Source: Halodesulfurarchaeum sp.
GTDB taxonomy: Archaea; Halobacteriota; Halobacteria; Halobacteriales; Halobacteriaceae
DNA length: 64,000 bases
Assembly (NCBI GenBank): GCA_042216015.1
Contig: JBDGUI010000007.1
Location: 33,652 to 97,651 of the forward strand
Direction: 5' to 3'
The notes beneath the pieces are model-generated. The model made no database searches. It was not told the origin of the DNA and saw nothing but the letters and a program-made list of their open reading frames with translations. Each line of letters opens with the position of its first letter. Position 1 is the stretch's first letter. Of the stretch, positions 20,208 to 62,876 are shown in pieces. Made by a program: the position numbers and the translations under genes.

Positions 20208-21164
20208 TCAGGAAGCACTCTCCGAATCGGAACCTTTCACCGAATCGGACGGGGGATCCTCCTCGGGGTCTGAATTGGACTCGGGGGGTGTCTCCGATCC
20301 GGAGGCCCCCTCGGAATCGGACTCGGGCTCCTGATAGAGTGTGCCCGAATCCTGCCCGTCGCCGAGTCCGCGATCCTGAATCCACAGGTCCCCGAAGAGG
20401 TCGTCCTGCTCGAGGTACACCTCGCCGCGGTGGGAGAGAAAGAGCAGGGCGAGGAAGGTCTCGATCCGGGACCCGGCGGCTACAGATATTTCGGCATAGA
20501 GCACCTCGGACCGGCCACGATCGTACCGCTTCGCGAGCGCTTCGGCGACGGCCTCGATGAGTTCGTCGATGTCTTCGTCGTGGGCCGTGCCGGTGACGGC
20601 CGATTCGTCCGGCTCACCCTCCGATCGGGTCTCGTCGCCCGACCGATAATCGAGGGTCTGCACCCCGCGGAGAAAGCCGTGGGGCGAGTGCTCCGTGTCA
20701 TAGCTCCGTCCGGTCTTCCACCACGAGCCCCGCTCGGCCTCGCGGAGTTCGCGGACGAGTTCGTCGAGGGTCTCAGGAGTGCCGCGGGCCGAGCGGCGCT
20801 CGAGCCGGCGGTCCATCTCCGCCTCGAGTTCGTCGATCGGATCGCCCACGCCCGGGGTCGGACCGTCGAACCTGGTCGGCTCCTCGAAGGGATCGATCCG
20901 CTCCGGCTCATCGGGCTCGTGGTCGAGATCCTCGGCAAACAGCTCGTCGCTCTTCATCCGCAACAGGACGCTGGCGTAGAACAGCGCCCGCCCCGAGGAG
21001 CGGATCTCGCCGTCGTCGAGGGCCGACAGGAACGCGTCCGTGACCCGGATGATGTCGATGTCCCAGGGGTCGATCTCGCCACGTTCGGCGAGCCCGACGA
21101 GCACCTCGACCGGTTCGACCGGCTCTTCGTCCTCGGGGATGTCAACCGATGCGACCTCAGTCAT
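20208..21164 (-). CDS. scpA: Segregation and condensation protein A (kleisin)
   Basis: IDPWDIDI...LLRMKS N-terminus; FLALLFL...LEQDDLFGDL C-terminus; overlaps the smc end. Confidence 0.9.
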   Translation of the reverse strand: MTEVASVDIPEDEEPVEPVEVLVGLAERGEIDPWDIDIIRVTDAFLSALDDGEIRSSGRALFYASVLLRMKSDELFAEDLDHEPDEPERIDPFEEPTRFDGPTPGVGDPIDELEAEMDRRLERRSARGTPETLDELVRELREAERGSWWKTGRSYDTEHSPHGFLRGVQTLDYRSGDETRSEGEPDESAVTGTAHDEDIDELIEAVAEALAKRYDRGRSEVLYAEISVAAGSRIETFLALLFLSHRGEVYLEQDDLFGDLWIQDRGLGDGQDSGTLYQEPESDSEGASGSETPPESNSDPEEDPPSDSVKGSDSESAS

Positions 21165-24100
21165 CCGCGACCGCCTCCCGACCGGCGAGGTCGATGCCCG
21201 TGACCGCCGAGATGTTGTCCTCCTGCATCGTCACGCCGATGGCGCGTTCGGAGCGCTCGAGCATGGCCGATCGGTGGGAGACGACGACGAACTGGGCCTC
21301 GCTTGCCAGTTCGTCGACCATCTCGCCCACCCGCTCGGCGTTTGCGGCGTCGAGGAACGCGTCGATCTCGTCGAGTGCGTAAAACGGGGCCGGGTTGTAT
21401 CGCTGGATCGCGAAGATGAACGCGAGGGCGGTCAATGACTTCTCGCCGCCCGACATGGCGTCGAGTCGCTGCACGGGCTTGTCCCCGGGCTGGGCTCGCA
21501 TCGTCATGCCCCCCTCGAAGGGCTCCTCCGGATTCTCGAGTGAGAGTTCGCCGGTCCCATCCGAGAGTCGCTCGAAGATGTCCTGGAACTGCTCGTTGAT
21601 CGCCTCGTAGGCGTCCATGAAGTTCTCCCGCTTGAGCCGGTCGTAGCGGTCGATCCGGTCCTCGATGGCCGCTCGCTCCTCGCTCAGTTCGTCCCGCTTC
21701 TCCGTGAGCCGATCGAGGACCGTCTCGACCTTCTCGTAGTCCTCGATGGCCTTCATGTTGACCGGCTCGAGCCGGCTCATCTGGCGTTCGAGGCGTCTGA
21801 CGTTCTTCTCGACGGTGTCCAGATCCGGAATGTCCCCGGGTTCGGTCTCCTCGACGGACTCCTCGAGTTCGGTGATCTCGGCCTCCAGTCGACCGGCCGA
21901 CTGTTCGAGACTCCGGATGCGGTTCTGCAGGCTGTCGACCTCGTTTTTCGTCTCGTCCCGTGTCTTCCGGGCCTCGGCCAGTTCCTCCCGCAGTTCCTCG
22001 CGTTCGGCCTTGAGATTGGCCAGCTCGTCCTCGAGTTCCTCGATCGCGGCCTTCTTTTCCTCGAGTCGCTCCTCGCGGTCCTCGATCTCCGCCTTCAGCT
22101 CGTCGATTCGCTCCTCCTGTTCGGCCTTGGTGTTCTGGGCGGCCTCGACGTCCTCGTGAAGGTCCTCGATCGCCGACTCGGCGTACTCTTTTTCCAGTTC
22201 GAGGCTGTTGAGCTCCCCGTCGATCTCGTCGATCCGGTCCTCGATCTCGGCCACGTCGGCCTGGAGGGATTCCTTTCGGTCGGTGAGTTCGGGGATCTTC
22301 GAGTCCGCGAGTTCGGCCTCCAGGTCCTCGATCTCCGCCCGCTTTGTCTCGATCTCGGAGGTCGTCTCCTCGATCTGCTCGTCGAGTTCGGCCATCTCCT
22401 CGTTGACCGCCTCGCGCTCCTCTTCGAGGTCCTCGATCCGCTGTGTGAGCGAGTCGATCTCCTCCCGTGTGTCTTCCAGTTCCCGCTCGGCGCGACCGCT
22501 TTCGGCCTCGATCTCCCGAACCCCATCGAGGGCGTCGGCCCGCTTCTCCCGGGCCCGCTCGATCTGCTCCTCGAGGTCGTCGATGTCGCCGGCGATTGCA
22601 GCTCGCTCGTCCTCGAGTTCCTCGATCCGCTCGGCGACCCGCTTGAGCTGTCCCTCGCCCGTCGCCTCGAAGGAGTAGCGCGATCCGGAGCCGCTGCCGC
22701 CGGTCATCGCGCCGCTCTTCTCGACGAGGTCGCCCTCGAGGGTCACGAGTCGGTACTCCCCCATGAACTCCCGGGCGGTGCCCATGTCTTCGACGACGAG
22801 CGTGTCTCCCAGAACGTAGGAGAAGACCGGGGCGTATTCCCTGGCGAAGTCCACGAGGTTGTACGCGAAGTCGATTACCCCCGGATGGTCGGGCGGGTCG
22901 GGCAGATACCGGTCGTCCATCTTCGTGATCGGGAGGAATGTCGCCCGACCGGCGTTCCGGGACTTGAGGTACTCGATACAGCGCTCGCCGACCTCGTCAT
23001 CGGCAACGACGACGTGGGCCATTCGCCCCCCGGCGGCGGTCTCACAAGCCGTGGCGTACTCCCGATCGACGCTGCCGAGTTCCGCGATTGCCCCGTGGAC
23101 CCCGTCCATGTCGGCATTGAGGATCGTCGTCACCGAGCGGCCAAAGGAGCTGTCGCCGTTCTCGTCGGCTCGGGCCTCGAGGGTGGCGTACTCCTTCCGT
23201 GCATCCTCGAGGTCCGATTCGATCGATTCGAGGTCCGACTGTCGCTCTGCCTTCTCCGCCTTGAGGTCCTCGATGACGTCCTCGATCTGTGCCTTGTTCT
23301 CGCGGGACTTCTCGAGTTCGCGTTCGAGGTCTCTGATTCTTTCCTCGAGTTCCTCGGCCCGCTCCCGGGCGTCCTCGAGGTCCGATTTGGCGGTTTCGAG
23401 CTCCGTCGAACGCCGACGTGCCTCGTCCAGGTGGCGGTCCTTCTCGCGCTGGAGTTCGTTTCGCTCCGCCTTCTTCTCCTCGAGTTCGGTCTTTACGGCC
23501 TCGAGGTCGGCCTTCAGGTCGTCGAAGGCCGTGTCGACCGCCTCCATTTCGGCCTCCACCTCCTCGATCTCGCCCTCGAGGGTCTGCTTCTCCCCGGCGA
23601 GGGAGGCCTTCTCGACCTTCAGCTCCCGAATATCGCCCTCGAGTTCGTCGATTTCCTCCTGCTTGCGGTCGATCTTGACGAAGGCCTGTCGGCGCGTCTC
23701 GGTCGCTTCCTGGATACGCTCCTCTGCCCCCTCGATGCGATCCTCGAGTCCGGAGATCTCCCCCTTGAGCTCCTCCATCTCGCCCTTCAGTCGGAGTTGC
23801 TCGTCTTCGCCTTTCCGCTCGATTTCGGCGTCGAGGTCCGCGAGATCCTCCGTGAGCCGGGTGACCGTCTCCTCCCGCTCGGCGAGTTCGGCCTGCAGGT
23901 CCGCGAGTTCGTCCTCGCGGGCCTCGATGTCAGCCCGCGTGTCTGCGAGTTCCTGTCGTCGCTCGTCGAGTTCGGCGAGGTCCCGATAAGCCTCGTATTC
24001 CTGTTTCTCCTCGCGGAGTCCCTGATACTCGAGGGCCGTCTCGCGCTCGTCCTCGAGCTGATCGAGTCGCTCCCGCTTCTCCTCGATCCGGAGTTCGGCC

Positions 24101-24729
24101 TCGCCGATCTTCTCGCGGACCGCCTCGAGTTCCGTCTCGGCGTCCGCCTTCTTCCGATCGAACTCCGCGACGCCGGCGATCTCGTCGATGAGCTCCCGGC
24201 GCTCGTGGGGGGTCATCTGGATGATGCCGGTTACGTCGCCCTGCATGACGACGTTGTACCCCTCTGGGGTGACTCCCGCACTCGAGAGGAGATCCTGGAT
24301 GTCAGAGAGGTTGACCGATCGGCCGTTGAGGTAATAATAGGAGTAGTAGTTGTCCTCGGTCTGCTTGATCCGGCGCTTCACCCGGATCTGGTCGACCTCC
24401 TCGACCGTCTCGGTCCCGAGCGCGGCGGCGAGTTGGGAACTCGTGATCGTTCGATCCTCGTTTGCCAGGGTCACCTCGACGTGAGCCTCCCGTGCTCCCT
24501 GGTGGTCGCGGTCTTCCTCGTGGGCCGGGTTGTAGATGAGGTCGGGGAGTTTCTGGGCCCGCATACCCCTGGTCCGGGCCAGTCCCAGCGCGAACAGGAT
24601 CGCGTCGATGATGTTCGACTTTCCCGAGCCGTTCGGTCCGCTAATCGTGGTGAAGTCCTCGTAAAACGGGATCCTGGTGGTTCGTCCGAAGCTCTTGAAG
24701 TTCTCCAGGACGATCTGGTCTATGTGCAT
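21157..24729 (-). CDS. smc: Chromosome segregation protein SMC
   Basis: GPNGSGKSN Walker A, hinge GRATFLP, MSGGEKS signature, LDEIDAFLD. Confidence 0.98.
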   Translation of the reverse strand: MHIDQIVLENFKSFGRTTRIPFYEDFTTISGPNGSGKSNIIDAILFALGLARTRGMRAQKLPDLIYNPAHEEDRDHQGAREAHVEVTLANEDRTITSSQLAAALGTETVEEVDQIRVKRRIKQTEDNYYSYYYLNGRSVNLSDIQDLLSSAGVTPEGYNVVMQGDVTGIIQMTPHERRELIDEIAGVAEFDRKKADAETELEAVREKIGEAELRIEEKRERLDQLEDERETALEYQGLREEKQEYEAYRDLAELDERRQELADTRADIEAREDELADLQAELAEREETVTRLTEDLADLDAEIERKGEDEQLRLKGEMEELKGEISGLEDRIEGAEERIQEATETRRQAFVKIDRKQEEIDELEGDIRELKVEKASLAGEKQTLEGEIEEVEAEMEAVDTAFDDLKADLEAVKTELEEKKAERNELQREKDRHLDEARRRSTELETAKSDLEDARERAEELEERIRDLERELEKSRENKAQIEDVIEDLKAEKAERQSDLESIESDLEDARKEYATLEARADENGDSSFGRSVTTILNADMDGVHGAIAELGSVDREYATACETAAGGRMAHVVVADDEVGERCIEYLKSRNAGRATFLPITKMDDRYLPDPPDHPGVIDFAYNLVDFAREYAPVFSYVLGDTLVVEDMGTAREFMGEYRLVTLEGDLVEKSGAMTGGSGSGSRYSFEATGEGQLKRVAERIEELEDERAAIAGDIDDLEEQIERAREKRADALDGVREIEAESGRAERELEDTREEIDSLTQRIEDLEEEREAVNEEMAELDEQIEETTSEIETKRAEIEDLEAELADSKIPELTDRKESLQADVAEIEDRIDEIDGELNSLELEKEYAESAIEDLHEDVEAAQNTKAEQEERIDELKAEIEDREERLEEKKAAIEELEDELANLKAEREELREELAEARKTRDETKNEVDSLQNRIRSLEQSAGRLEAEITELEESVEETEPGDIPDLDTVEKNVRRLERQMSRLEPVNMKAIEDYEKVETVLDRLTEKRDELSEERAAIEDRIDRYDRLKRENFMDAYEAINEQFQDIFERLSDGTGELSLENPEEPFEGGMTMRAQPGDKPVQRLDAMSGGEKSLTALAFIFAIQRYNPAPFYALDEIDAFLDAANAERVGEMVDELASEAQFVVVSHRSAMLERSERAIGVTMQEDNISAVTGIDLAGREAVADD

Positions 24730-25032: not shown

Positions 25033-25144
25033 GGATAGACGAACCACCGTGAAGGCCTTAAACCGTGTGGCAGACGCGTGTCAGACATCTGCCTCAGCCG
25101 CCCCTTCGTCAGGCCTATAGCCCTCGGCGCGGAACCGATTGCCA

Positions 25145-26635
25145 ATGTCATCGGTCTCCTCGCGGACGAACCTCGCTCCCGTCATCGGCCTCGAGGTCCA
25201 CGTCCAACTCGAGACGGACACGAAGATCTTCTGTGGGTGCTCGACCGACGTCGAAGACGCCGAGCCGAATACCAACACCTGTCCTGTCTGTCTCGGGCTA
25301 CCCGGCTCCCTGCCCGTGCTCAACGAGGTGGCTGTCGAGTCCGCAGTGAAACTTGGCAAGGCAATCGAGGCCGAGATCCCGGAACGCACCCGCTTTCACC
25401 GGAAGAATTACTTCTATCCGGACCTCCCGAAGGGCTTTCAGATCACCCAGTACGACGCCCCAATCTGTGCCGAGGGCCACCTGGAGATTTCCCACGAGGG
25501 CGAGCGTCGCGACATCGGCATCGAGCGGGCCCACCTCGAGGAAGACCCGGGAAGCCTCCAGCACGAGGGGGGCCACATCGACACCGCGGAGTACACCCTC
25601 GTCGACTACAACCGCGCCGGCGTGCCGCTGATGGAGATCGTCACGAGACCGGACTTCCGCGGTCCCGGCGAGGTCAGGGCCTTCCTCTCCAAACTGGAGG
25701 AGGTCCTCGAGTATCTGGGCATCTACGACAGCCAGCGGGACGGCAGCCTCCGCATCGACGCGAACATCTCCCTCGTCGACGAGTCGGAGATCGCGGTCGA
25801 CGGCTCGATCTCCGGAGCGGTCCTCGCCGACGCCAATCGGACGGAAGTCAAGAACATCTCCAGCCACAGGGGGGCCGAAACCGCCCTCGCCTACGAGATC
25901 ACCCGCCAGCGCAACGCGATCGAGCGCGGCCGCGAGGTCACCCAGGAGACCCGTCACTGGGACGAATCCCGCGGCATCACGGTCTCGATGCGGGAGAAGG
26001 AGGCGGAAAAGGAGTACCGCTACTTCCGCGAGGCCGATATCCCGCCCCTCGAGGTCGCTCACTGGAAGGAGGAGATCCCGATCCCGGAACTGCCGGACGC
26101 CAGACGCGAACGGTTCCAGGACGAGTACGGACTCGGCGGGGAGGCCGCCTCGAAGCTCACCTCCACGAAGCAGATCGCGGACTTCTTCGAGGCTGTCGCC
26201 GACCGCTTCGACGCGGACCTCGCGGCGACCTGGGTCTCGGACACCCTCCTCGGCGAACTCAACTACCGCGACATGGCGATCACCGACGTGGAGGACCGCT
26301 TCGACGAGATCACCCGGTTGATCGAACTCGTCGCGAGCGAGGAGATCACCGAGCGCAACGCGAGGGAGGTCGTCCTCCGATCGATGCTCGACGACGGCGA
26401 CGCCCCGGACGAGATCGTCGAAAGCGAGGGGCTCGGCAAGACGGAGGCGGACGAGGTGGTCGCTGCGGTCCAGGCGGCAATCGAGGCGAACCCCGAGGCC
26501 GTCGAGGACGTCAAAGCCGGTGAGGACGGGGCGATCAACTTCCTCGTGGGACAGGTCATGCAGGAGACGGGCGGTCGGGCCGATCCAGGCGACGTGAACC
26601 AGCTGTTGCGTGAGCGATTGCCCGAAGCGGAGTGA
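25145..26635 (+). CDS. gatB: Asp/Glu-tRNA amidotransferase subunit B
   Basis: IGLEVHVQL, RKNYFYPDLPKGFQITQ, HLEEDPG, YRYFRE, NFLVGQVM. Confidence 0.97.
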   Translation: MSSVSSRTNLAPVIGLEVHVQLETDTKIFCGCSTDVEDAEPNTNTCPVCLGLPGSLPVLNEVAVESAVKLGKAIEAEIPERTRFHRKNYFYPDLPKGFQITQYDAPICAEGHLEISHEGERRDIGIERAHLEEDPGSLQHEGGHIDTAEYTLVDYNRAGVPLMEIVTRPDFRGPGEVRAFLSKLEEVLEYLGIYDSQRDGSLRIDANISLVDESEIAVDGSISGAVLADANRTEVKNISSHRGAETALAYEITRQRNAIERGREVTQETRHWDESRGITVSMREKEAEKEYRYFREADIPPLEVAHWKEEIPIPELPDARRERFQDEYGLGGEAASKLTSTKQIADFFEAVADRFDADLAATWVSDTLLGELNYRDMAITDVEDRFDEITRLIELVASEEITERNAREVVLRSMLDDGDAPDEIVESEGLGKTEADEVVAAVQAAIEANPEAVEDVKAGEDGAINFLVGQVMQETGGRADPGDVNQLLRERLPEAE

Positions 26636-26776
26636 GTTTCGGTTCGGTATCGTCGACAGCGCCAGTCGGCGTTTTCGGGGAGCGTGGGTGGGTCGAAATA
26701 TGGTGGTAGATCGTATCAGTCAGAGTTGTTGACTCTGTTTGAATTTGGCAAGGTAATTGATATTGAATTAACTTCA

Positions 26777-26805
26777 GTGCTGACTATAGAGCATGTATTC
26801 AGCAA
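26777..26805. repeat. 29-bp palindromic site 1
   Basis: GTGCTGACTAT-AGAGCAT-GTATTCAGCAA (11-7-11). Confidence 0.7.
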
Positions 26806-26884
26806 GCGCCCCACGTTCGTTTCAGCTTAAATGAAAGCGCTGTCAGGTAGATGTACGTCTATTGCCAGGAACGCTGTCAGAAGC

Positions 26885-26911
26885 GTGCTGTATACAGCGC
26901 GTATTCAACAC
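26885..26911. repeat. 27-bp palindromic site 2
   Basis: GTGCTGTATAC-AGCGC-GTATTCAACAC (11-5-11); each arm has 1 mismatch to GTGCTGAATAC. Confidence 0.65.
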
Positions 26912-27003
26912 GATAGTCTCATATCGGACGGCTGCCGGCGCCAATCGAATGCGTAGCGGATTTTCGAGAACGAATCGTCTCGAATATAAGCGCCCCTGGT
27001 TGT

Positions 27004-27780
27004 TTATTTTCGGCGACGACGGATGACTAGGAGCGTGGTGGCTGTAAGCACTGCGACGACAGCAACACCGATACCGAATCCTGGCGCGCCGGCGCCGCTC
27101 GTCTCATTACCCGCGTCAGTCACGGTTTCGCCCGCTGCGGGTGCAAACACCGTCTCGAACCCCTCGAACTGCGTCGTCGCACTCCACGTCGCGCTGTTCT
27201 GCTGCTGGCTGGTCGGCGTCGGGGTGGCCGTGTCCAGCGCGTAGCCGTCGGGGCCGACGACCCTGAACGGCCGATCAATGTCGAAGCCGCTGGCGAAGGG
27301 CTCCCGGAGCACGAGTCGGTTGCCCTTCTGGGCGGCGAGCCCGTCCCACGTCACCGACAGGCCGACGATGCCGGTGCCATTCTCGGTCGTAAATGTCATG
27401 GCGGGGTTTCGAATCGCCATATCGCGACCGGTGTCGTTTTCGGCCTGGGCTGCGATGGCCCGCATCCGTGTAGCGAACCGGTCCGTTCGCTGTTCTCGGG
27501 CGGTCTCGTTCGCGCGGAGCGCCTCGAACGCGATGCGTTCGCTTTCGGTGGTCAGATCGAAGGTCGTGACCAGCGTCACGCGAGCCGAGCCATCAGCGTC
27601 GAGTGCGACGACGAACGCTGGCTCCGCGGACAGCGACGGTGTCGAATTGGTGGATTGTGCTGTCGTTGCCGTTGCAGCCACAGGCACCATTACGAGCAGG
27701 ACGAGGGCAACGAGTACGCAGCCGAGACGGACGCCCTCCACATCCGCAAGCCGTGTGGTCGAGTCAGTACGGTCAGTCAT
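27004..27780 (-). CDS. Cell-surface protein with PGF-CTERM sorting signal
   Basis: N-terminal hydrophobic signal; C-terminal APGFG + TM + RRRRK; ectodomain similar to that of 29890..31005. Confidence 0.85.
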   Translation of the reverse strand: MTDRTDSTTRLADVEGVRLGCVLVALVLLVMVPVAATATTAQSTNSTPSLSAEPAFVVALDADGSARVTLVTTFDLTTESERIAFEALRANETAREQRTDRFATRMRAIAAQAENDTGRDMAIRNPAMTFTTENGTGIVGLSVTWDGLAAQKGNRLVLREPFASGFDIDRPFRVVGPDGYALDTATPTPTSQQQNSATWSATTQFEGFETVFAPAAGETVTDAGNETSGAGAPGFGIGVAVVAVLTATTLLVIRRRRK

Positions 27781-27876
27781 GGATGAGTATCATAAGTGAA
27801 TGGGAAACGGTCATCGTTGAGTAAACTGGATGCCTGTGCAGTTGATAACCTGAAATCGCGCGAGCCAGGAGGTTAC

Positions 27877-29667
27877 CTAGCTTTCGTCGTCCTTATCAGT
27901 GTCTTCTTCGGGAGTCTCAGTTTCTTCCTCCTCGTCCTCGGCCTTGTCACCGTCGCCTTCATGCGCTTCCTCGGTCTTATCAGTGTCTTCTTCGGGAGTC
28001 TCAGTTTCTTCCTCCTCGTCCTCGGCCTTGTCACCGTCGCCTTCATGCGCTTCCTCGGTCTTATCAGTGTCTTCTTCGGGAGTCTCAGTTTCTTTCTCCT
28101 CGTCCTCGGCCTTGTCACCGTCGCCTTCATGCGCTTCCTCGGTCAAAGTGAGCGAGCCGTTCTGCACGGTGAATTCGAGCTCGGCCTCGAACGCGCCTTT
28201 GACGACCTCGAGATCGAGTTCCTCCGTCGTGTTCGTGTCGATCGTGAACGTGACCGTCCCGTCGAAGCCGGTGGTCCCGACCGCCTGCCCGTTCGCGTAG
28301 ACCGTCGCGTTCGCGACGCTCGAGCCATTATACGAGACGGCCACTGAGACGGTGTCGTCAGCCAACGAGGCATCCACGTTCAGCTGGCGGAAGACCTCGC
28401 TCTCCTCGTCTTCCTCCTCGAATTCAAATTCGAGCTCACCCTCGGCCTCACCCTTCTGGGCCGTAAGTTCCGCCTTGCCGCTCTCGGGGAGCGTCATCGT
28501 CACCGTTCCGTTAGCGTCGGTCGTCCCGACGGCCTGCTCGTTCAGGAAGACGGTGACGTTCTCGGCGGGTGCCCCGTTCGAGAGGACCTTCACCGTCACG
28601 GTCGCGTTCGGACCGGGCGTCCCCTCGGAGACGATGACCGCGAGTTCGCCCTCTTCCGCATCTTCGGCATCTTCTCCTTCTTCGCCCTCGTCCTCACGTT
28701 CCTCTTCGTCCTCCTCGTCCTCGGCGTCGCGGCGTTCGATCTCCTCTTCGAGCGAGAAGACCTCGCCCGAGGACCCGTCGACGCTGACCTCAGCCTCGCC
28801 GGTCTGGTTGTCCGCACCCCGGAGCACGAACGCGAACTCGTAGGCCCCCCCGTCCTGTTTGATTTTTGCCTCCGTGAGTGTCCAGGTGCCGTTCTCCGGT
28901 GTCGAGAGCGCTGCCCGCGCCGTGTCGAGGGCCACAGACTGGTTCACCGTGATATTTCGATTGTCGTCCCGCGGACGCTCGATCTCGCGGGACTGTTCAC
29001 CGTCTTCACTCTCGATTTCGATCGAGAGGCCCTCGGCGGTCTCGAGTTCTATCTCGTCCTCTGACTGGCCAGTGACCTGTTTGAGTAGAGCCGCAGGCCC
29101 AGCGCCGATGACGCTACTCAGGTTTTCGACGGACGCACGCAGCTCCGACTGGTTCACGCCGGCCGCCTGGAGTTCGAGTGCGGAGACGTTCTGGGCGCGC
29201 TTCTGGAGCTGTTCGTAGCTGTTTAGGAGGTTCGTCGCCCGCGCGTTTAGCGTGGCGAGTCGCTGGGCGTACTCGGACTTGCTGATCTCACCTTCTTCGT
29301 ACGCCTCGGTGGCCTCCTCGTAGTCCTCGCGGATGGCCTCAGCGCGGTCACGCAGCTCTTCCGCGCGGTCGGCGATGGCCTCGGCCTGTGCTTCCTCGCT
29401 CGCGCCCTCGACAGACACTTCGAAGGCCGTGTTCTCGAAGTCGGTCTGGACCTCGTCGCTTGAGACGCTGATGACCGTCGAGAGTTGCTGTCCGACGGTG
29501 ACGTTCACGCTCGAGTTATTCGTATTCTCCTGGGCGGTGGCGGCCACCGCCGCGCTCCCATCGGTGGCTGACACGCCATCGGTTGTCGACACTGCCGCTG
29601 CCGGGACAGTCACCCCCACGACGACCACTAGCGTGAGCAGTAGGTATCCGAGTGACTTTGCGTTCAT
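27877..29667 (-). CDS. Large secreted acidic protein (helical region, PepSY-like segment, two Ig-like beta repeats, acidic repeat tail)
   Basis: Signal peptide MNAKSLGY...PAAA; EVSVDGSSGEV PepSY-like; repeated NxTVxxNxQAVGTTxxxGTVT; ATG at 29667. Confidence 0.82.
   Translation of the reverse strand: MNAKSLGYLLLTLVVVVGVTVPAAAVSTTDGVSATDGSAAVAATAQENTNNSSVNVTVGQQLSTVISVSSDEVQTDFENTAFEVSVEGASEEAQAEAIADRAEELRDRAEAIREDYEEATEAYEEGEISKSEYAQRLATLNARATNLLNSYEQLQKRAQNVSALELQAAGVNQSELRASVENLSSVIGAGPAALLKQVTGQSEDEIELETAEGLSIEIESEDGEQSREIERPRDDNRNITVNQSVALDTARAALSTPENGTWTLTEAKIKQDGGAYEFAFVLRGADNQTGEAEVSVDGSSGEVFSLEEEIERRDAEDEEDEEEREDEGEEGEDAEDAEEGELAVIVSEGTPGPNATVTVKVLSNGAPAENVTVFLNEQAVGTTDANGTVTMTLPESGKAELTAQKGEAEGELEFEFEEEDEESEVFRQLNVDASLADDTVSVAVSYNGSSVANATVYANGQAVGTTGFDGTVTFTIDTNTTEELDLEVVKGAFEAELEFTVQNGSLTLTEEAHEGDGDKAEDEEKETETPEEDTDKTEEAHEGDGDKAEDEEEETETPEEDTDKTEEAHEGDGDKAEDEEEETETPEEDTDKDDES
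27892..28144. repeat. 84-bp tandem repeat, 3 copies, in frame (28 aa)
   Basis: Units start at 27892, 27976 and 28060; I see one substitution in the third copy. Confidence 0.95.
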
Positions 29668-29845
29668 CGTGAGATATCCGTATGCGGGATATGTTGATAA
29701 ACCGGCGTGATGTTTGGAGTGATTCGCGGACGTTTGCACTCATTTGCACCCGACGTGTCCGTTCAAACCGCCTTACTGCGAGGTGACATAGGCCCATCCG
29801 CAATCAAGTACACCACGGGTGGGTTGGCCCGCAACCCTTCCGATG

Positions 29846-29860
29846 AACAAACCTTTATAC
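29846..29860 (+). promoter_or_regulatory. Putative BRE/TATA promoter of the TM-HTH gene
   Basis: ACAAACCTTTATAC about 35 nt upstream of ATG 29890. Confidence 0.5.
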
Positions 29861-29889
29861 GTATTTCGTCGGAATCTGGAGCCAACTGA

Positions 29890-31005
29890 ATGACTGAGTC
29901 ACTGCGGAAGCGTTCGATGACTGTCGTTTCGATGTGTGTCATCGGGCTCTTGCTCACAGCGACCTTTCTGCCGATGGCGGCTGTGAACGTTGCAGGACAG
30001 ACGGCACAGCCAGAGGCGGACAACACAGTCACTCGGATTAATGTCTATCCGAATGGGTCGGCGCAGTGGACGATCCAGATTCGAACCCGACTGGACACCG
30101 ACGACCGCGTCGCCGAGTACGAAGCGTTCCAGAAGCGATTCAGAGAGAACACCTCGCGGTATCTCGACCCGTTTCGCCAGCGGATGCAGGGCGTCGTCGC
30201 CAACGCGGCGAACGCAACCGGACGCGAGATGCGTGCCGTGAACTTCACCGCCTCGACGAGCATCCAGGAGGTCCCTCGCCGCTGGGGGCTCGTCACCTAT
30301 CAGTTCATGTGGACGAACTTCGCCGCTCAGCAGAACGAGACGCTCGCCGTTGGCGATGTTTTCCAGGGCGGCTTCTTCCTGGCAGCGAATGATTCGCTCG
30401 AGATCGAGGCTCCGACTGAGTACGAAATCAGTCGTGTGGAACCGACGCCCGACAGCCGGGACGATGGGGTCGTGACGTGGGTCGGTCGCGAGGACTTCGC
30501 CAACCGCCACCCTCGCGTGGTATTCAACCCCACTACAGAGTCGCAGCAGCCCGGTGAGCAGTCACCAACACCCGACGGAGCGACATCGTCGCCATTCGGC
30601 CGTATCGGGCTGGGAGCTGTCTTGGGGGGAGTACTCCTGTTGACCCTCGTCGGCATCGGTGCGTACATCGGCTGGCGCCGACGCACCGATTCTGGCGGCA
30701 CGGAACACCCTGCGTCAACAAGCGCGAACGTAAATCAGGATAGTCCGGCGCAGGCACCGACAGGCGAGGATGCGCCGGGGGATGACACGTCGGCAGGCGG
30801 GGCGGTCATGACCGATCCCGAGCGCGTCCAGGCACTGCTCGAAGCGAACGGTGGGCGCATGCGACAGGCCTCCATCGCCGACGAATTTGACTGGTCGGCC
30901 TCGAAAACGTCACGCGTCATCGGGAACATGGTCGACGAGGGAACGATCGAGAAACTCCAGCTGGGCCGCGAGAACCTGATCGAGATCGCCGACGCTGATG
31001 AGTGA
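29890..31005 (+). CDS. Membrane-spanning regulator: signal peptide, ectodomain, TM helix, cytoplasmic winged HTH
   Basis: TM GAVLGGVLLLTLVGIGAYIGW-RRR; C-terminal GGRMRQASIADEFDWSASKTSRV...GRENLI; alternative start 29917. Confidence 0.85.
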   Translation: MTESLRKRSMTVVSMCVIGLLLTATFLPMAAVNVAGQTAQPEADNTVTRINVYPNGSAQWTIQIRTRLDTDDRVAEYEAFQKRFRENTSRYLDPFRQRMQGVVANAANATGREMRAVNFTASTSIQEVPRRWGLVTYQFMWTNFAAQQNETLAVGDVFQGGFFLAANDSLEIEAPTEYEISRVEPTPDSRDDGVVTWVGREDFANRHPRVVFNPTTESQQPGEQSPTPDGATSSPFGRIGLGAVLGGVLLLTLVGIGAYIGWRRRTDSGGTEHPASTSANVNQDSPAQAPTGEDAPGDDTSAGGAVMTDPERVQALLEANGGRMRQASIADEFDWSASKTSRVIGNMVDEGTIEKLQLGRENLIEIADADE

Positions 31006-31066
31006 CTATATGGGGATCCAACCACATCAACCGGGCCGAGTGGGATCGGAATAAAACGATACTGCT

Positions 31067-31095
31067 GTGCTGCACTCAGACCGTGAATGCAGCAC
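31067..31095. repeat. 29-bp palindromic site 3
   Basis: GTGCTGCACTC-AGACCGT-GAATGCAGCAC (11-7-11). Confidence 0.65.
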
Positions 31096-31189
31096 ATACA
31101 ACCGCAGACCTAATTGATTCCTCGTCTCGACACGTGATAGTGTTAGTCCCGAAATGCTATTACCTGTTCTACGATTTGATTCAGGTACT

Positions 31190-31243
31190 GGGCAATGGAG
31201 TCTGCCTGATCCAACCGCCGAGACCGTCGGCTGATGACTCCTC
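31190..31243 (+). ncRNA. Fluoride riboswitch (crcB motif)
   Basis: GGCAATGGAGTCTGCC...AACCGCC...GGCTGATGACTCCT: stem GGCA/TGCC, stem GCCGA/TCGGC, pseudoknot GGAGTC/GACTCC; ends 16 nt upstream of crcB. Confidence 0.9.
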
Positions 31244-31259
31244 TTCGAGTGATTCAATC

Positions 31260-31652
31260 ATGTCAGACGGAGTTTCGCACCCAATCGCCCGAGTGGAGTC
31301 GGTAGCGCTGATCGCAATCGGTGGCTTTGCCGGATCGAATTTTCGGTATCTCGTTGGCTTCATTCTTCCAGGCATGCCTGGAACTCTCCTGGCGAATGCC
31401 ATCGGGAGCTTTGCGCTCGGGTTCATCCTCTATGAACGAATCTACACAGGCATCATGGCATCCCAGACCCGGATCGCGGTCGCCACGGGCTTCCTCTCGT
31501 CCCTTACTACGTATTCCACCTTCGCGGTCGAATCCGGGCTTGCCGATCCAACGTGGATGGTGACAAACATCGTGGCGAACTACTCGCTCGGGTTCCTCAG
31601 CATCGTGGCCGGTCGTGAACTGGTGCGACATACCCAACGGCGGTGGTCGTGA
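31260..31652 (+). CDS. crcB: Fluoride channel Fluc/CrcB, subunit 1
   Basis: GGFAGSNFRY, GTLLANAIGSF, TGFLSSLTTYSTF; ATG at 31260. Confidence 0.9.
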   Translation: MSDGVSHPIARVESVALIAIGGFAGSNFRYLVGFILPGMPGTLLANAIGSFALGFILYERIYTGIMASQTRIAVATGFLSSLTTYSTFAVESGLADPTWMVTNIVANYSLGFLSIVAGRELVRHTQRRWS

Positions 31653-32017
31653 TGGTGGCACTGGATCCAGCCCATATCGTCGGTCTCGGTGGGGCCGTGG
31701 GTGCGATTCTTCGTCAGTGGGTCAGTCAGCGGGTGGACATCGAAGGCTATCCGACGGGCACATTCACCGTGAACGTTATCGGGACGTTCCTGTTGGGGAC
31801 TATCACGTTCCTCGGCGTCGATTCGACGGTTTCGTGGTTCTTCGGCGTCGGTCTTTGTGGGTCCTTTACCACGTTCTCGTCATTCTCCTTCGAGACGGTC
31901 AGGCTCTGGGAGACCGAGGAACGATGGCGGGCTGTGATGAACTCGTTCGGGAATCTCCTTGGGGCGGGCCTTGCAATAGGATTGTCCTGGTTACTCGTTC
32001 AGGCTCTCGCCGGGTGA
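31652..32017 (+). CDS. crcB: Fluoride channel Fluc/CrcB, subunit 2
   Basis: GGAVGAILR, GTFTVNVIG, GLCGSFTTFSSF; start overlaps the upstream stop (TGATG). Confidence 0.92.
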   Translation: MVALDPAHIVGLGGAVGAILRQWVSQRVDIEGYPTGTFTVNVIGTFLLGTITFLGVDSTVSWFFGVGLCGSFTTFSSFSFETVRLWETEERWRAVMNSFGNLLGAGLAIGLSWLLVQALAG

Positions 32018-32455
32018 TCACTCACCCTCTTCGAGTCGAACGATCTGGATCGGGACCGTGGCTCGCCGAATCACGCGTTCGGTAACGCTCCCGACCAAGA
32101 CCCGATTGAGTCCGGTTCGTCCATGGGTGCCCATCACGATGAGATCGATATCGTTCTCGTCGACGTAATCCAGAATCTCTTCGGCTGGGACACCTCGTGC
32201 GATATCCGTCGTGACGTGGACTGACGCCTCCTCTGCCGTTTCGCGAACAGTCCCGAGAGCACGTTCTGCCTCTTCGGTAAATTCGTCCTCGATGGTGAGC
32301 CACTTGGATTCAGGGAGCACGTTGTAGTCCCGCGTGTCGATGACGTAGAGGCCATGGACGGTTCCCCCGGTGAGTTCGGCAAGGTTGACCGCTTCGCTGA
32401 TTGCCCTTGTGGACCCCTCACTCCCGTCGGTGGGGATCAATATATTCCGATACAT
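32018..32455 (-). CDS. Universal stress protein
   Basis: ILIPTDGS, DLIVMGTHGRTG...GSVTERV. Confidence 0.93.
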   Translation of the reverse strand: MYRNILIPTDGSEGSTRAISEAVNLAELTGGTVHGLYVIDTRDYNVLPESKWLTIEDEFTEEAERALGTVRETAEEASVHVTTDIARGVPAEEILDYVDENDIDLIVMGTHGRTGLNRVLVGSVTERVIRRATVPIQIVRLEEGE

Positions 32456-32501
32456 ACGCGATGATACTGTACCGACTGTAATAGTTCGGTAGGACTTGAG
32501 T

Positions 32502-32530
32502 GTGCTGAATTTGCGCTATGTATTCAGCAC
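32502..32530. repeat. 29-bp palindromic site 4
   Basis: GTGCTGAATTT-GCGCTAT-GTATTCAGCAC (11-7-11). Confidence 0.7.
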
Positions 32531-32689: not shown

Positions 32690-35164
32690 GTGGAACTCAT
32701 CATCACCGAGAAGAACAACGCTGCCCGCCGCATCGCGGAGATCCTGAGCGACGGCTCCAGTCGGACCGAGCGCGTCGGCGGGGTCGATGTCTACGCCTGG
32801 GGCACCCACCGCGTGATCGGCCTCGCCGGCCACGTCGTCGGGGTTGACTTCCCCGAGGAGTACTCGGACTGGCGGGACGTTCGACCCGCCGAACTGGTCC
32901 ACGCCCCGATCGAGACCCGGGTCACCAAACCGGACATCGTCTCCTCGCTGAAGCGCCTCGCCCGCGAGGCCGAAAGCGTCGTCATCGCCACCGACTACGA
33001 CCGCGAGGGCGAACTCATCGGGAAGGAGGCCTACGAACTCGTCCGGGAGGTCGACGAGTCGGTCCCGGTCTCCCGGGTCCGCTTCTCCTCGATCACCGAA
33101 AACGAGGTCAAGACGGCCTTTGCGAACCCGGACGACCTCGACTTCGAACTCGCCGCAGCTGGCGAAGCCCGCCAGCGGATAGACCTGCTCTGGGGCGCGG
33201 CGCTCACGCGATTTCTCTCCCTCTCGGCGGGTCAGCGCGGCAAGGACTTCATCAGCGTGGGTCGGGTCCAATCGCCCACGCTCAAGTTGATCGTCGACAA
33301 GGAACGAGAGATCCAGGCCTTCGACCCGACGACCTACTGGGAGCTCTTCGCTGACCTCGAGGGCGGGGACACCACCTTCGAGGCGCAGTACTTCTACGAC
33401 GATGACGGCTCGGAGGCCGAGCGAATCTGGGAGGAGGGTCACGCCACGGCGGCCGAGGGGGACCTCGAACGGAACGGCTCGGTCACGGTAGAGTCGGTCG
33501 ATCGTCGCCGCCGGACCGACGATCCGCCGGCCCCCTTCGCCACGACGCAGTTCATCAAGGCCGCCGGCTCGCTCGGGTTCAACGCCGGTCGGGCGATGAG
33601 CATCGCCGAGGACCTCTACACCGCCGGGTACATTACCTACCCGCGAACGGACAACACGGTATACCCGGACGACCTCGATCCCGCAGAATTGCTCTCGGTC
33701 TTCGAGGGAACGCCCTTCGACGACGCCGCGACGCTCCTGCTCGATCAGGGTGATCTGGAACCCACTCGGGGCGATTCGGAGACGACCGACCATCCACCCA
33801 TCCACCCGACGCCGGACGTGCCGGCCCGCAAGGACCTCTCCGAGGACGAGTGGCAGATCTACGAACTCGTCGCGAGGCGCTTTTTCGCCACGCTTGCGGA
33901 GCCGGCGGTGTGGGAACACCTCCGGGTCGTCGCGGCCGCGGCCGACCGGTGGCTCAAGGCCAATGGCAAGCGCCTGGTCGAGGAGGGTTACCACGCCGTG
34001 TATCCCTACGTCGATACCTCGGAGAACTACGTTCCCGATCTCGAGGAGGGCGTCTCCCTTCGGATCGAGTCGGTCACTCTCGAGGAGAAGGAGACCAAAC
34101 CGCCCCGGCGCTACGGCCAGTCCCGGCTCGTCGAGACGATGGAGAAACTCGGCATCGGGACCAAGAGCACCCGACACAACGTGATCGAGAAGCTCTACGA
34201 TCGGGGCTATCTGGAGGACGATCCGCCTCGACCGACCCAGCTCGCGATGGCGGTCGTGGAGGCGGCCGAGGAGTACGCCGATCTGGTCGTCAGCGAGGAG
34301 ATGACCCGGGAACTCGAGGAGGAGATGACGGCGATCGTCGAGGGGGAGAAGGAACTCGAGGAGGTCACGACCGATTCCCGCGAGGCGCTGGACCGCATCT
34401 TCGACTCCCTGGCCGAATCCCGGGACGCGATCGGGGAGCATCTCCGGGACTCGCTCAAGGCCGACAGGACGCTGGGTCCCTGCCCGGAGTGTGGTTCGGA
34501 CCTCCTGGTTCGGCAGAGTCGCCGGGGATCGTACTTCGTTGGGTGTGACGGCTATCCCGACTGCGAGTTCACCGCCCCGCTGCCAAACCGGGGCGAGCCC
34601 CAGGTCCTCGATGACGTCTGTGAGACACACGACCTCCATCACGTCAAGATGCTCGACGGCCGGAGCACGTTCGTTCACGGTTGTCCGCTCTGCAAGGTCG
34701 AGGACGCCGACGCGGCAGAGGACGAGGTCATTGGGCCCTGTCCGGAGTGTGGCGAGGAACACGGCGGCGAACTCGCCATCAAACACCTCCGGAATGGCTC
34801 ACGGTTGGTCGGGTGCACCCGGTATCCCGACTGCGAGTACGCGGTTCCCCTGCCCCGACGCGGCGACGTCGAGGTGACCGAAGACCGGTGTGCGGAACAC
34901 GATCTCCCGGAACTCCGGATCCTCGACGGCGAGGAGCCGTGGGAGTTCGGCTGTCCGATCTGCAACTACCGTGAGTACGTCGCCGACCGAAACAGCGACC
35001 TCGCCTCGATCGACGGCATCGGGGAGAAGACCAAGGAGAAACTCCAGGCGGCGGGGATCGAGGACGCGAGTGACCTGCTCGAAATCGAACCCGAAGCGGT
35101 GGCCCCCGAGATCGACGGCGTCTCGGCCGATCGGCTCGGCGAGTGGCAGCGAAGTATCGGGTGA
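32690..35164 (+). CDS. topA: DNA topoisomerase I (type IA)
   Basis: LIITEK TOPRIM, ATDYDREGE, SVGRVQSP, GYITYPRTD active Tyr, Zn ribbons, C-terminal HhH-like segment. Confidence 0.97.
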   Translation: MELIITEKNNAARRIAEILSDGSSRTERVGGVDVYAWGTHRVIGLAGHVVGVDFPEEYSDWRDVRPAELVHAPIETRVTKPDIVSSLKRLAREAESVVIATDYDREGELIGKEAYELVREVDESVPVSRVRFSSITENEVKTAFANPDDLDFELAAAGEARQRIDLLWGAALTRFLSLSAGQRGKDFISVGRVQSPTLKLIVDKEREIQAFDPTTYWELFADLEGGDTTFEAQYFYDDDGSEAERIWEEGHATAAEGDLERNGSVTVESVDRRRRTDDPPAPFATTQFIKAAGSLGFNAGRAMSIAEDLYTAGYITYPRTDNTVYPDDLDPAELLSVFEGTPFDDAATLLLDQGDLEPTRGDSETTDHPPIHPTPDVPARKDLSEDEWQIYELVARRFFATLAEPAVWEHLRVVAAAADRWLKANGKRLVEEGYHAVYPYVDTSENYVPDLEEGVSLRIESVTLEEKETKPPRRYGQSRLVETMEKLGIGTKSTRHNVIEKLYDRGYLEDDPPRPTQLAMAVVEAAEEYADLVVSEEMTRELEEEMTAIVEGEKELEEVTTDSREALDRIFDSLAESRDAIGEHLRDSLKADRTLGPCPECGSDLLVRQSRRGSYFVGCDGYPDCEFTAPLPNRGEPQVLDDVCETHDLHHVKMLDGRSTFVHGCPLCKVEDADAAEDEVIGPCPECGEEHGGELAIKHLRNGSRLVGCTRYPDCEYAVPLPRRGDVEVTEDRCAEHDLPELRILDGEEPWEFGCPICNYREYVADRNSDLASIDGIGEKTKEKLQAAGIEDASDLLEIEPEAVAPEIDGVSADRLGEWQRSIG

Positions 35165-62354: not shown

Positions 62355-62876
62355 AGTCGAATAGGACGGATTCGGTGTTCGGTCATAGCATCAGTGACAG
62401 GGTTCCGATCGTCGGTCCAGCGCCCGGTCCATGTGGTGTCGGAAAGAACACAGACCAAGGCCGTGGCGGGTTATCGACCGGAAGCACCCGCGTTATCGGC
62501 GTATTGTCGGTCCCTGATATAAAAGTCTTCCCAACGAGCCCCCGGTTCAGGCCATCGAGGCCACCCAGGCGATGTACACGAGCCATTCGAGATGGGGCGA
62601 CAATGCCCAGCTCCTCGACCCTCCCCTCGTCCGTGAAGTCGAGATTCTGGGGCTAAGAACGGATCCCACCGCGATCTCCGCCGGGTCCCGTGTAGGCACA
62701 TGGATCGCGGTTGGGACGACCGAGACATGAATCCTCCTCGAACTGGCGAGCGTGGCGAGTCATTTACCGAAGGAGATCACTCTCTCGCAGCCGAAGACGG
62801 AGACCGGATACGTCGGACGATTTAAGTGCTTCATCGTTGCATACCTGGGTATGAAACACACGTGGAGGGGGTGCCC

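Follow-up and report, generated by a model that had tools for sequence, protein, structure and literature searches.

Gene flow among haloarchaea is very high and is known to run through plasmids, viruses, insertion sequences and homologous recombination; the IS1595/ISH4 family of insertion sequences generates 8-bp target duplications. Accessory DNA can also be rearranged at short dedicated sites. Integron attC sites are 55-140 bp long and lie in direct order, while the sfx sites of the shufflon (Rci, plasmid R64) have one conserved and one variable arm on either side of a 7-bp spacer, with inverted sites bounding serial segments that are alternative gene ends and undergo inversion only. The pdif modules of Acinetobacter (XerC/XerD) have, in the available part of their description, inversely oriented sites of which one arm is more conserved, and no recombinase inside (PMC6449649). 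For archaeal dif sites the hallmark, as given in the accessible sections of the source, is TAA-N6-8-TTA at the inner arm ends (PMC11840125). Among small mobile elements, MITE classes are annotated in Halobacterium (PMC7002104, available portion), and haloarchaeal IS605-type elements and PATEs carry conserved near-terminal palindromes, with 52-bp terminal-only remnants, as far as the accessible text of PMC3119063 goes.

Here we consider a 64-kb window (the whole stretch of DNA analysed, 64,000 nt) of Halodesulfurarchaeum sp., in which four related palindromes, s1 to s4, all lie within a 6-kb accessory island between gatB and topA. The best explanation of the whole, which we hold with moderate confidence, is that s1-s4 are conserved haloarchaeal 29-bp cassette-junction sites and that the island is a partly decayed array. 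The features of the locus are the following.

25139..26635, + strand: gatB, the left backbone gene (Pfam; synteny).
26731..26744, + strand: GACTCTGTTTGAAT, possibly a transposon terminus in degenerate form, ending 46 nt short of where s1 lies.
26777..26805, + strand: s1 palindrome, 11-7-11, with the centre AGAGCAT, the same as in the plasmid sites; nhmmer E 1.9e-3 against the profile of the plasmid unit.
26885..26911, + strand: s2 palindrome, 11-5-11, its centre 2 nt shorter, in the orientation of s1; nhmmer E 2.5e-3 against the same profile.
27004..27780, - strand: module A gene 1, a secreted DUF7345 protein with a PGF-CTERM-like tail (Pfam PF24036, E 1e-23).
27877..29739, - strand: module A gene 2, an acidic secreted DUF7096 protein (Pfam).
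29890..31005, + strand: module A gene 3, a membrane-anchored DUF7345 + DUF7343 winged-helix protein (Pfam PF24036, PF24034).
31067..31095, + strand: s3 palindrome, 11-7-11, outer arm on the left, the left joint of module B; nhmmer E about 1 against the profile, the weakest of the four.
31182..31250, + strand: fluoride riboswitch heading the crcB pair (Rfam RF01734, scoring 44.9 bits where the gathering cutoff is 34).
31260..32017, + strand: the crcB pair of module B, fluoride-channel genes (31260-31652 and 31643-32017; Pfam PF02537 in both).
32018..32455, - strand: universal stress protein gene of module B, usp (Pfam PF00582, E 5e-40).
32502..32530, - strand: s4 palindrome, 11-7-11, reversed, outer arm on the right, the right joint of module B; nhmmer E 2.6e-6 against the profile.
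32690..35164, + strand: topA, the right backbone gene (Pfam; synteny).

A sequence-only reading of this DNA had placed four inverted repeats at these positions, three of them 11-7-11, and direct letter-by-letter verification in the 64-kb window bore this out; all have arms of about 11 bp (11-7-11 in 3 of 4, 11-5-11 in one). The pattern GTGCTG-N17-CAGCAC, with at most one mismatch, was observed three times in the window against 0.02 expected, and none of 100 shuffles attained three matches; the palindrome 11-mer with at most two mismatches was observed 19 times against 5.5 expected. The four palindromes are far beyond chance. A scan of the whole window for pairs of half-site PWM matches returned s1-s4 and one weak match at 62834, compared with 0-2 matches in each of 10 shuffled controls, and placed s1-s4 only at the joints of the island, in keeping with the earlier reading, which had noticed none in the backbone. 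The repeat common to the four sites is confined to about 29 bp within the window. ORF positions confirmed that all are intergenic: s1 lies 142 bp past the gatB stop, s2 93 bp past the stop of a converging 258-aa gene, s3 62 bp past the stop of a 371-aa gene and 87 bp before the fluoride riboswitch, and s4 47 bp upstream of the ATG of usp and 160 bp ahead of topA. The island had further been described as integrase-free, and integrase or transposase domains were found in none of the 58 window ORFs scanned.

The gap between gatB and topA is variable elsewhere in haloarchaea, ranging from 124 bp to 3.5 kb. The palindrome motif was absent from at least about 30 haloarchaeal GatB loci (at most 77% identity) among the matches listed, and the extended unit described below was absent from 36 chromosomal gatB loci. 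Module A (window positions 27012-31006) is 85.4% identical to the Halobaculum roseum (H. roseum) plasmid NZ_CP082287.1; the plasmid homologue of its first gene bears the annotation PGF-CTERM sorting domain protein, and its second gene contains three 84-bp tandem repeats (27883-28144). The module A copy on NZ_CP082287.1 has no adjoining sites, and a search for sites next to other copies of module A or of crcB-usp was likewise negative on the H. roseum plasmid and on a Halorubrum plasmid. In Haloprofundus a single unit lies close to crcB and points away from it.

On plasmids, the 29-bp site is conserved, its centre included, across dozens of genera of haloarchaea. When 53 nt around s4 served as the query, 26 plasmid records matched, 24 of them haloarchaeal; the matches span exactly 29 bp, and almost all fall in DNA without annotation. 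Over these 29 nt, s4 is 96.6% identical to a site on a Salinibaculum plasmid. A query with the conserved unit of ~65-70 nt found 161 places on 102 haloarchaeal plasmids and no match in the phage collection. The plasmid sites are 11-7-11 (consensus ...AATAC-N7-GTATT...): their outer arm, GTGCTGAATAC, is conserved, the 7 bp of the centre start with AGAG on the side of that arm, and the inner arm varies. Two classes of inner arm recur, spread across unrelated cargo; about one third of the plasmid units have no recognisable inner arm, and conservation of the repeat often ends at AGAG. The sites adjoin 5' and 3' gene ends irrespective of gene direction. A literature search by motif and by topic, with subscription papers and ISfinder outside its scope, returned no account of this site system.

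What the sequence-only reading had not foreseen is that the sites prove to be the inner part of larger inverted repeats with 8-bp duplications: on plasmids, the terminal inverted repeats are ~85 bp long, end in GGCTCTGTTGAAAC and have the site at their inner edge. All 15 of the frames examined had inward-facing inverted site pairs around functionally unrelated cargo (ion channels, transporters, regulators and enzymes, for example), with 1-4 genes between the sites, and in none of the 15 was a transposase or recombinase annotated as cargo, separate IS insertions aside; four further frames enclosed cargo alone and no transposase. Perfect 8-bp direct repeats accompanied 6 of the 12 frame pairs with both termini (5 independent), and one further pair had an 8-bp repeat with a single mismatch. 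Along plasmid arrays the site orientation alternates, and internal back-to-back doublets, which occur without transposon termini, had a 37-nt spacer in five of five cases. Since such doublets stand between neighbours, each 1-4-gene cassette lies between two inward-facing sites. A complete frame is present on the Haloferax volcanii plasmid pHV1, while the pNRC100 region with MITEHsal1 and ISH4 lacks the unit. No integrase gene was found beside the plasmid arrays examined, a matching transposase was found among none of 10 cargo or neighbouring proteins scanned, and this small sample of frames and replicons yielded no recombinase and no autonomous transposase that could be tied to the elements.

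The terminal inverted repeats and target duplications, together with a frame terminus that is alike in 11 of 16 bases to the ISH4/IS1595 end on the same plasmids, favour an alternative explanation, namely that the palindromes are subterminal transposase-binding parts of non-autonomous transposon repeats, with swaps by homologous recombination or gene conversion and with decayed copies in the window. The frequent stop of repeat conservation at AGAG points in the same direction. On the other hand, this explanation does not account for the constant spacing of the terminus-free doublets, and the recurrence of both inner-arm classes across unrelated cargo argues against it.

Exchange of cargo was assessed in two independent comparisons, each of which gave both the same frame with new cargo and the same cargo in a new frame. 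H. roseum and Haloarcula litorea have flanks that are 98% and 94% identical and different cargo; on the left, identity ends after ...AATACAGAG, and on the right it begins at CTCTATATTC.... H. roseum and Halorussus halophilus carry the same cargo (98.3% identity over 2362 nt), the identity stops at the outer edges of both palindromes, and the repeat segment and target duplication differ. In the second comparison, the flanks of Hfx. volcanii pHV1 and Hfx. gibbonsii are 96% identical around cargo of 3.1 kb and 0.86 kb, respectively, and Hfx. volcanii and Hfx. larsenii likewise have the same cargo in a different frame. Judged from these alignments, cargo has been exchanged between frames, with the joints in or at the palindrome. 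One of the four resolved breakpoints is off-centre: at the left of the Hfx. volcanii/Hfx. gibbonsii pair, identity already falls some 13 nt beyond the outer arm, within the second conserved block. Recombination within a short conserved block accounts for this breakpoint no worse, and perhaps better, than strict site-specific exchange, and the breakpoint supports the transposon-repeat explanation. Against that explanation, frames with the same cargo have nothing but the 29-bp palindrome in common, a very short stretch for homologous recombination to act on.

Within the window, s1, s2 and s3 are oriented alike and s4 is reversed, and the only inward-facing canonical pair is s3/s4, around the riboswitch-crcB-crcB-usp segment (module B). 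Module A is flanked by s2 and s3, which are co-oriented and hence not an inverted pair. The window contained no 37-nt doublet of sites, no right transposon terminus detected next to any site, and no perfect 8-bp target duplication (near-matches occurred at about the chance rate, 1.9 expected); alignments of the window site flanks with the plasmid repeat were not significant. The window sites nevertheless retain both arms although their flanks are unrelated, which again argues against decayed transposon repeats, and we consider that explanation unlikely, if worth serious attention. Because the outer arm and AGAG centre of s1 are on its left, its cargo is expected rightward. Near s1, GACTCTGTTTGAAT occupies the place where the plasmid elements have GGCTCTGTTGAAAC, and it is the only such candidate beside any of s1-s4; with one edit allowed, CTCTGTTGAA has two matches in the window, about three being expected by chance, and one of these is at the expected distance from s1. 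Its role as a transposon terminus is suggestive only; s1 may be a worn left terminus.

It is improbable that these are true Xer/dif-type sites, an archaeal form of pdif on which XerA, the host's resolvase of chromosome dimers, would act. The 11-7-11 arm-spacer-arm geometry speaks for such sites, as do the inverse sites around modules, one arm better conserved and no module recombinase, all shared with pdif in the available part of PMC6449649; but TAA-N6-8-TTA, the hallmark in the accessible sections of PMC11840125, occurs in none of the four window sites nor in the plasmid consensus, the spacer has 7 bases, not 6, and the sites are embedded in transposon repeats. The sequence-only reading had proposed a pdif/cassette-like system moved in trans: its cassette joints are upheld by the cargo swaps, and no recombinase is encoded, whereas its Xer/dif identity is not supported, the archaeal hallmark being absent.

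Near-terminal hairpins of IS200/IS605-type (TnpB) transposons, or of their transposase-free PATE derivatives, were considered because of tnpB neighbours, 3 of about 9 H. roseum plasmid sites being less than 500 bp from tnpB; conserved near-terminal palindromes are moreover known in the haloarchaeal members (PMC3119063, available text). This candidate was dropped once inverted repeats and target duplications had been seen, and it is set apart by the PATE descriptions, which in the accessible part of PMC3119063 are without inverted terminal repeats or target duplications, while the present elements have both. Moreover, none of the frames includes tnpB, and one of the tnpB copies is an insertion of its own that H. 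litorea lacks; we regard this origin as very improbable. Least credible of all are transcription-factor operators (e.g., of the island's membrane-anchored winged-helix protein) or RNA hairpin terminators, for although s4 precedes a TATA-like box of usp by 17 bp, s1 to s3 are downstream of gene ends and the RNA fold of s3 is good (z -3.7), the divergent promoter of module A has no site, the position of the sites relative to promoters is not constant (5' ends, 3' ends, between converging genes), conservation is of sequence and not structure (6 of 7 folds unremarkable), no Rfam family matches the sites (the fluoride riboswitch is the sole Rfam match), the breakpoints of the cargo swaps are left unexplained, and the earlier remark that s1 and s2, between convergent gene ends, fit an operator poorly agrees with sites at both gene ends and cargo swapped at palindromes on plasmids.

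The cassette-joint idea is therefore supported, from the plasmid frames, the doublets and the cargo exchange. In the mechanism that we propose, a trans-acting site-specific recombinase, most likely a tyrosine recombinase, would cut and rejoin in the centre of the site, and the inner arm would travel along with the cargo. Because the flanking sites are inverted, cassettes would be swapped by two crossovers or flipped, not excised. The frames themselves would be mobilised by a DDE-type transposase provided in trans, and the island in the variable gatB-topA gap would be a partly decayed cassette array in which s3 and s4 bound module B canonically. Taken as a whole, a natural haloarchaeal cassette exchange, in which a recombinase acting in trans swaps or flips cassettes across plasmids, chromosomes and genera and the gatB-topA island is one chromosomal landing, is a tentative proposal whose chances we place a little short of even.

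If true, such exchange would account for the movement of individual accessory genes among unrelated replicons and genera with almost no footprint left behind. It would be the first archaeal analogue of pdif/integron-type shuffling outside integron-integrase systems and would match pdif modules, integrons and shufflons in function. The fixed 29-bp joint, the 37-bp doublet spacing and the transposable platforms together provide a signature for genome-wide searches for cassettes, and a recombinase acting on the 29-bp site could serve as a genetic tool in halophiles. With its pHV1 frame, Haloferax volcanii makes the cassette question directly testable.

In comparison with known systems, the haloarchaeal sites resemble pdif, within the available description, in being short arm-spacer-arm sites, inverted around accessory modules, with several modules in series (PMC6449649). 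They differ in length and sequence (29 bp, 11-7-11, and unrelated to the 28-bp, 11-6-11 pdif), in missing the archaeal dif hallmark, in lying inside terminal inverted repeats with 8-bp target duplications, and in that neighbours are parted by a 37-bp site doublet, where pdif neighbours are parted by one shared site. Inverted repeats, 8-bp duplications and the lack of an internal transposase are shared with MITEs and non-autonomous TIR transposons of IS1595/ISH4-like type; here, however, the repeats are ~85 bp long with an inner palindromic site, cargo is replaced between fixed repeats, and internal site doublets occur without transposon termini. Haloarchaeal IS605-type elements and PATEs likewise have palindromes near their ends, occur in many genera and are often beside tnpB, but PATEs are described, in the accessible text, without the inverted terminal repeats and target duplications present here (PMC3119063). 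Integrons are similar in that promoter-independent cassettes of accessory genes follow one another in arrays, with imperfect palindromes as joints and, as proposed here, crossover inside the joint, whereas the haloarchaeal sites are 29 bp, alternately inverted and have no adjacent integrase gene, and a simple reaction between inverted sites cannot excise cassettes as circles. Finally, the haloarchaeal sites are like those of the shufflon in combining a conserved and a variable arm with a 7-bp spacer and in bounding, in inverted orientation, several segments in series; but where shufflon segments are gene ends, the haloarchaeal segments comprise entire, unrelated genes, which are exchanged from one replicon or genus to another. 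The sites thus look like an apparently undescribed archaeal counterpart of the bacterial cassette-shuffling systems.

The four palindromes claimed by the sequence-only reading were read directly in the window with the sequences it gave; three have an 11-7-11 geometry over 29 bp and the second (s2) is 11-5-11. Allowing up to one mismatch, the window holds 3 copies of the motif GTGCTG-N17-CAGCAC versus 0.02 expected. All eight arms were used to make a half-site matrix, which recovered only s1-s4 as strong pairs in the 64 kb (10 shuffles gave 0-2 hits), in agreement with the sequence-only reading, which noticed no such repeat in the backbone. The likeness among the four sites is limited to about 29 bp.

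Features of the smc-topA stretch of the window (coordinates, strand, identity)
21157-24729, minus: smc
25139-26635, plus: gatB
26777-26805: s1
26885-26911: s2
27004-27780, minus: module A, DUF7345 protein
27877-29739, minus: module A, DUF7096 protein
29890-31005, plus: module A, DUF7345 + DUF7343 winged-helix membrane protein
31067-31095: s3
31182-31250, plus: module B, fluoride riboswitch (RF01734, 44.9 bits)
31260-32017, plus: module B, crcB and crcB
32018-32455, minus: module B, usp
32502-32530: s4
32690-35164, plus: topA

Elsewhere the window carries chromosomal housekeeping genes, among them scpA, metG, pps, pyk, tfb, polX and ftsZ. The island had been described as integrase-free, and indeed no integrase or transposase domain was detected in the 58 scanned ORFs of the window, nor was any tRNA found in it. 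The fluoride riboswitch, absent from the earlier reading, precedes the crcB pair, so that the promoter of these genes falls between s3 and the riboswitch. In module A, the DUF7345 domains of the 258-aa secreted protein (27004-27780) and of the N-terminal half of the 371-aa protein (29890-31005) are paralogous, the 371-aa protein also having a transmembrane segment and, on the cytoplasmic side, a DUF7343 winged helix; the arrangement is suggestive of a transmembrane regulator and its soluble decoy or partner. At its 3' end, the 620-aa gene carries three tandem 84-bp repeats (27883-28144, 96-100% identical) coding for an acidic repeat at the C-terminus of the protein, and its Halobaculum roseum homologue is shorter (1770 vs 1863 nt).

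A GatB query against genome contigs matched at least about 30 haloarchaeal loci (best identity 77% among the matches listed), and 17 of the ~30 haloarchaeal loci listed contain both gatB and topA, in unchanged order. The gap between them measures 124 bp, 182 bp and 225 bp at three compared loci (L015, L018 and L013, respectively), ~1.2 kb in Halobacterium, 3.5 kb in Haloferax and 6.05 kb in the window. The island genes are absent from the gaps of the 17 compared loci, and the motif is absent from all 80 loci searched (1.35 Mb). Given this variable gap and the lack of island genes in other gaps, the island is, on this comparison, accessory DNA in a hot spot.

The scan of haloarchaeal plasmids proposed in the sequence-only reading did recover the motif: a 53-nt query around s4 matched 26 plasmid records, 24 of them haloarchaeal, with matches that span exactly 29 bp and lie nearly all in unannotated DNA. 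The centre is conserved along with the arms (e.g., GTGCTGAATACAGAGCGCAAATTCAGCAC in Salinibaculum), the outer arm and AGAG are near-invariant and the inner arm is variable; because a conserved arm and centre are joined to a variable arm, the site has polarity, and by the outer-arm/AGAG criterion s1, s2 and s3 point rightward and s4 leftward. The plasmid comparisons show that the window palindromes are members of a plasmid site family. Copy alignment and a profile search defined a unit of about 85 nt, consisting of GGCTCTGTTGAAAC, then ~25-30 nt with TGAyAGG, then the site. A query containing the unit core matched 161 places on 102 haloarchaeal plasmids, whereas neither 36 chromosomal gatB loci nor the phage collection contained the unit.

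In all 15 frames examined (Natrialba, Haloferax, Halobaculum, Haloplanus, Salinibaculum, Salinigranum, Haloarcula, Haloglomus, Halorussus), the units form inward-facing inverted pairs enclosing a cargo of 1-4 genes with unrelated functions, including a formate/nitrite transporter, TrkA-C, an MFS transporter, a cytosine permease plus dihydropyrimidinase, a regulator plus a nickel-binding protein, an ester cyclase plus a cupin, and small hypothetical proteins; no transposase was found as cargo in these frames. Of the 12 pairs having both termini, 6 lie between perfect direct repeats of 8 bp (AAACCTTC; ACCAGGCC, in two pairs from orthologous loci; GGACTTGC; AACTAGGA; CTAAAAAT), and one further pair has a single mismatch. 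These flanking repeats show that the frames transpose with 8-bp duplications. ISH4/IS1595 copies on frame-bearing plasmids end in CGCTCTTGTGTAGCAC, 11 of whose 16 bases agree with the frame terminus; this family presumably also makes 8-bp duplications, with some members carrying passenger genes. Other elements have entered frames, with ISHvo12 inside a cassette of Haloferax volcanii pHV1 (L091 13191-14581) and an IS5-family element splitting a right terminal repeat in two in Halorussus (L097 5705-6556). The terminus GGCTCTGTTGAAA also occurs with no palindromic site behind it (L084 4131, L086 37439, L089 46141), in one case adjoining a copper and heavy-metal ATPase cluster; such termini may belong to related frames that have no cassette site.

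Frames with several cassettes contain internal doublets of back-to-back sites, whose outer arms face each other across exactly 37 nt in 5/5 cases from five genera, so that site orientation alternates along the array; the 37-nt spacer is similar to the repeat segment minus the transposon terminus. The inner arms fall into two recurring classes, the outer-arm complement (...AGTTCAGCAC) and a variant (...GAGTCGGTCAC), and we counted about 10 of 16 cassettes in which both classes are represented.

The proposal of a cassette-like system held on the plasmids, where cargo is swapped with joints in or at the palindrome. H. roseum and Haloarcula litorea have an insertion and its duplication ACCAGGCC in common, with 98.0% identity over 1.78 kb of left flank and repeat and 94.4% over right repeat and flank, whereas their cargo differs (fnt + trkA-C vs ester cyclase + cupin). 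Identity stops after GTGCTGAATACAGAG on the left and resumes at CTCTATATTCAGCAC on the right, both breakpoints being at the palindrome centre. Halorussus halophilus also has the fnt + trkA-C cargo, 98.3% identical; there homology is bounded by the outer edges of both palindromes and the frame has other repeat segments and another target duplication (CTAAAAAT). As a second replicate, Hfx. volcanii pHV1 and Hfx. gibbonsii have flanks and repeats 96% identical around unrelated cargo (3.1 kb vs 0.86 kb), with the order of the inner-arm classes swapped, and Hfx. larsenii carries the volcanii cargo, 93-95% identical and without the ISHvo12 insertion, in a different frame. The right joint of the Haloferax comparison is at the palindrome centre; on the left, identity falls about 13 nt outside the outer arm already. 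These comparisons show that the site family marks cassette joints and that frames trade cargo, the breakpoints falling in or at the site. A 1.45-kb tnpB (IS605-type) element of H. roseum (L088 18026-19478), adjoining a truncated polB start, is precisely missing from the orthologous H. litorea locus (L094), a clean insertion polymorphism that can be used to define the element ends.

We infer that a trans-acting site-specific recombinase would catalyse exchange in the site centre; with inverted sites on either side of a cassette, the expected products would be double-crossover replacement or inversion, rather than excision. The main rival, in which the palindrome is merely the transposase-binding part of the repeat and swapping proceeds by homologous recombination in short conserved blocks, is favoured by the off-centre breakpoint on the volcanii/gibbonsii left side, but fits poorly with the limitation of sequence common to different frames to 29 bp, with the recurrence of the inner-arm classes and with doublets fixed at 37 nt. 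General properties of archaeal tyrosine recombinases are described in PMC8371274; the Xer/dif identity proposed earlier is unsupported, since the archaeal dif hallmark TAA-N6-8-TTA, as given in PMC11840125, is absent from the sites. An IS605/PATE reading (PMC3119063) is at odds with the inverted repeats and duplications of the frames, and the tnpB genes adjoining some sites all lie outside frames, one being a separate insertion. Operator readings (already judged a poor fit for s1 and s2) and RNA readings do not agree with the site positions or with the Rfam and fold results.

Searching the window with the plasmid profile gave significant matches confined to the palindrome part (E = 2.6e-6, 1.9e-3 and 2.5e-3 at s4, s1 and s2, respectively, against about 1 at s3). 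Sites s3 and s4 enclose the riboswitch-crcB-crcB-usp cassette in the canonical inward-facing arrangement, and a terminus-like CTCTGTTTGAA lies 46 nt upstream of s1, the expected distance; a right terminus, a 37-nt doublet and a target duplication were looked for in the window and none was found. Module A (27012-31006) has a counterpart of 85.4% DNA identity on an H. roseum megaplasmid (NZ_CP082287.1 54415-58389, L081/L087), with homology stopping at the gene ends, a likeness that points to a fairly recent transfer between chromosome island and plasmid and is a hint that the source of the window is a related genus. The plasmid copy has no sites within 4 kb, nor are there any beside the crcB-crcB-usp set of that plasmid. 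Because of the missing right terminus, doublet and duplication and the site-free plasmid copies, the island has the look of an array that is partly decayed or atypical. An 8-base string (TGACTATA, within 31001-31012) that equals the core of the s1 outer arm overlaps the 371-aa stop codon, at the very point where module A homology to the plasmid copy stops; this could be coincidence or a leftover half-site. Some 400 bp upstream of its own riboswitch-crcB unit, the H. roseum plasmid has a second sequence that is 85.7% identical to the window riboswitch (L086 46762-46817); with Mg-transporter and TrkA-C genes nearby, it may represent a riboswitch duplication.

The literature searched, by motif text and by topic, yielded no description of a haloarchaeal system of this sort; ISfinder, subscription journals and PATE supplements may have relevant annotations. 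MITE classes, the ISH4 class among them, are annotated in Halobacterium (PMC7002104), and the unit is absent from the pNRC100 region with MITEHsal1 and ISH4. The double-crossover and inversion logic envisaged here is that proposed for pdif modules, and the haloarchaeal sites would belong among recombination-site-bounded cassette systems.
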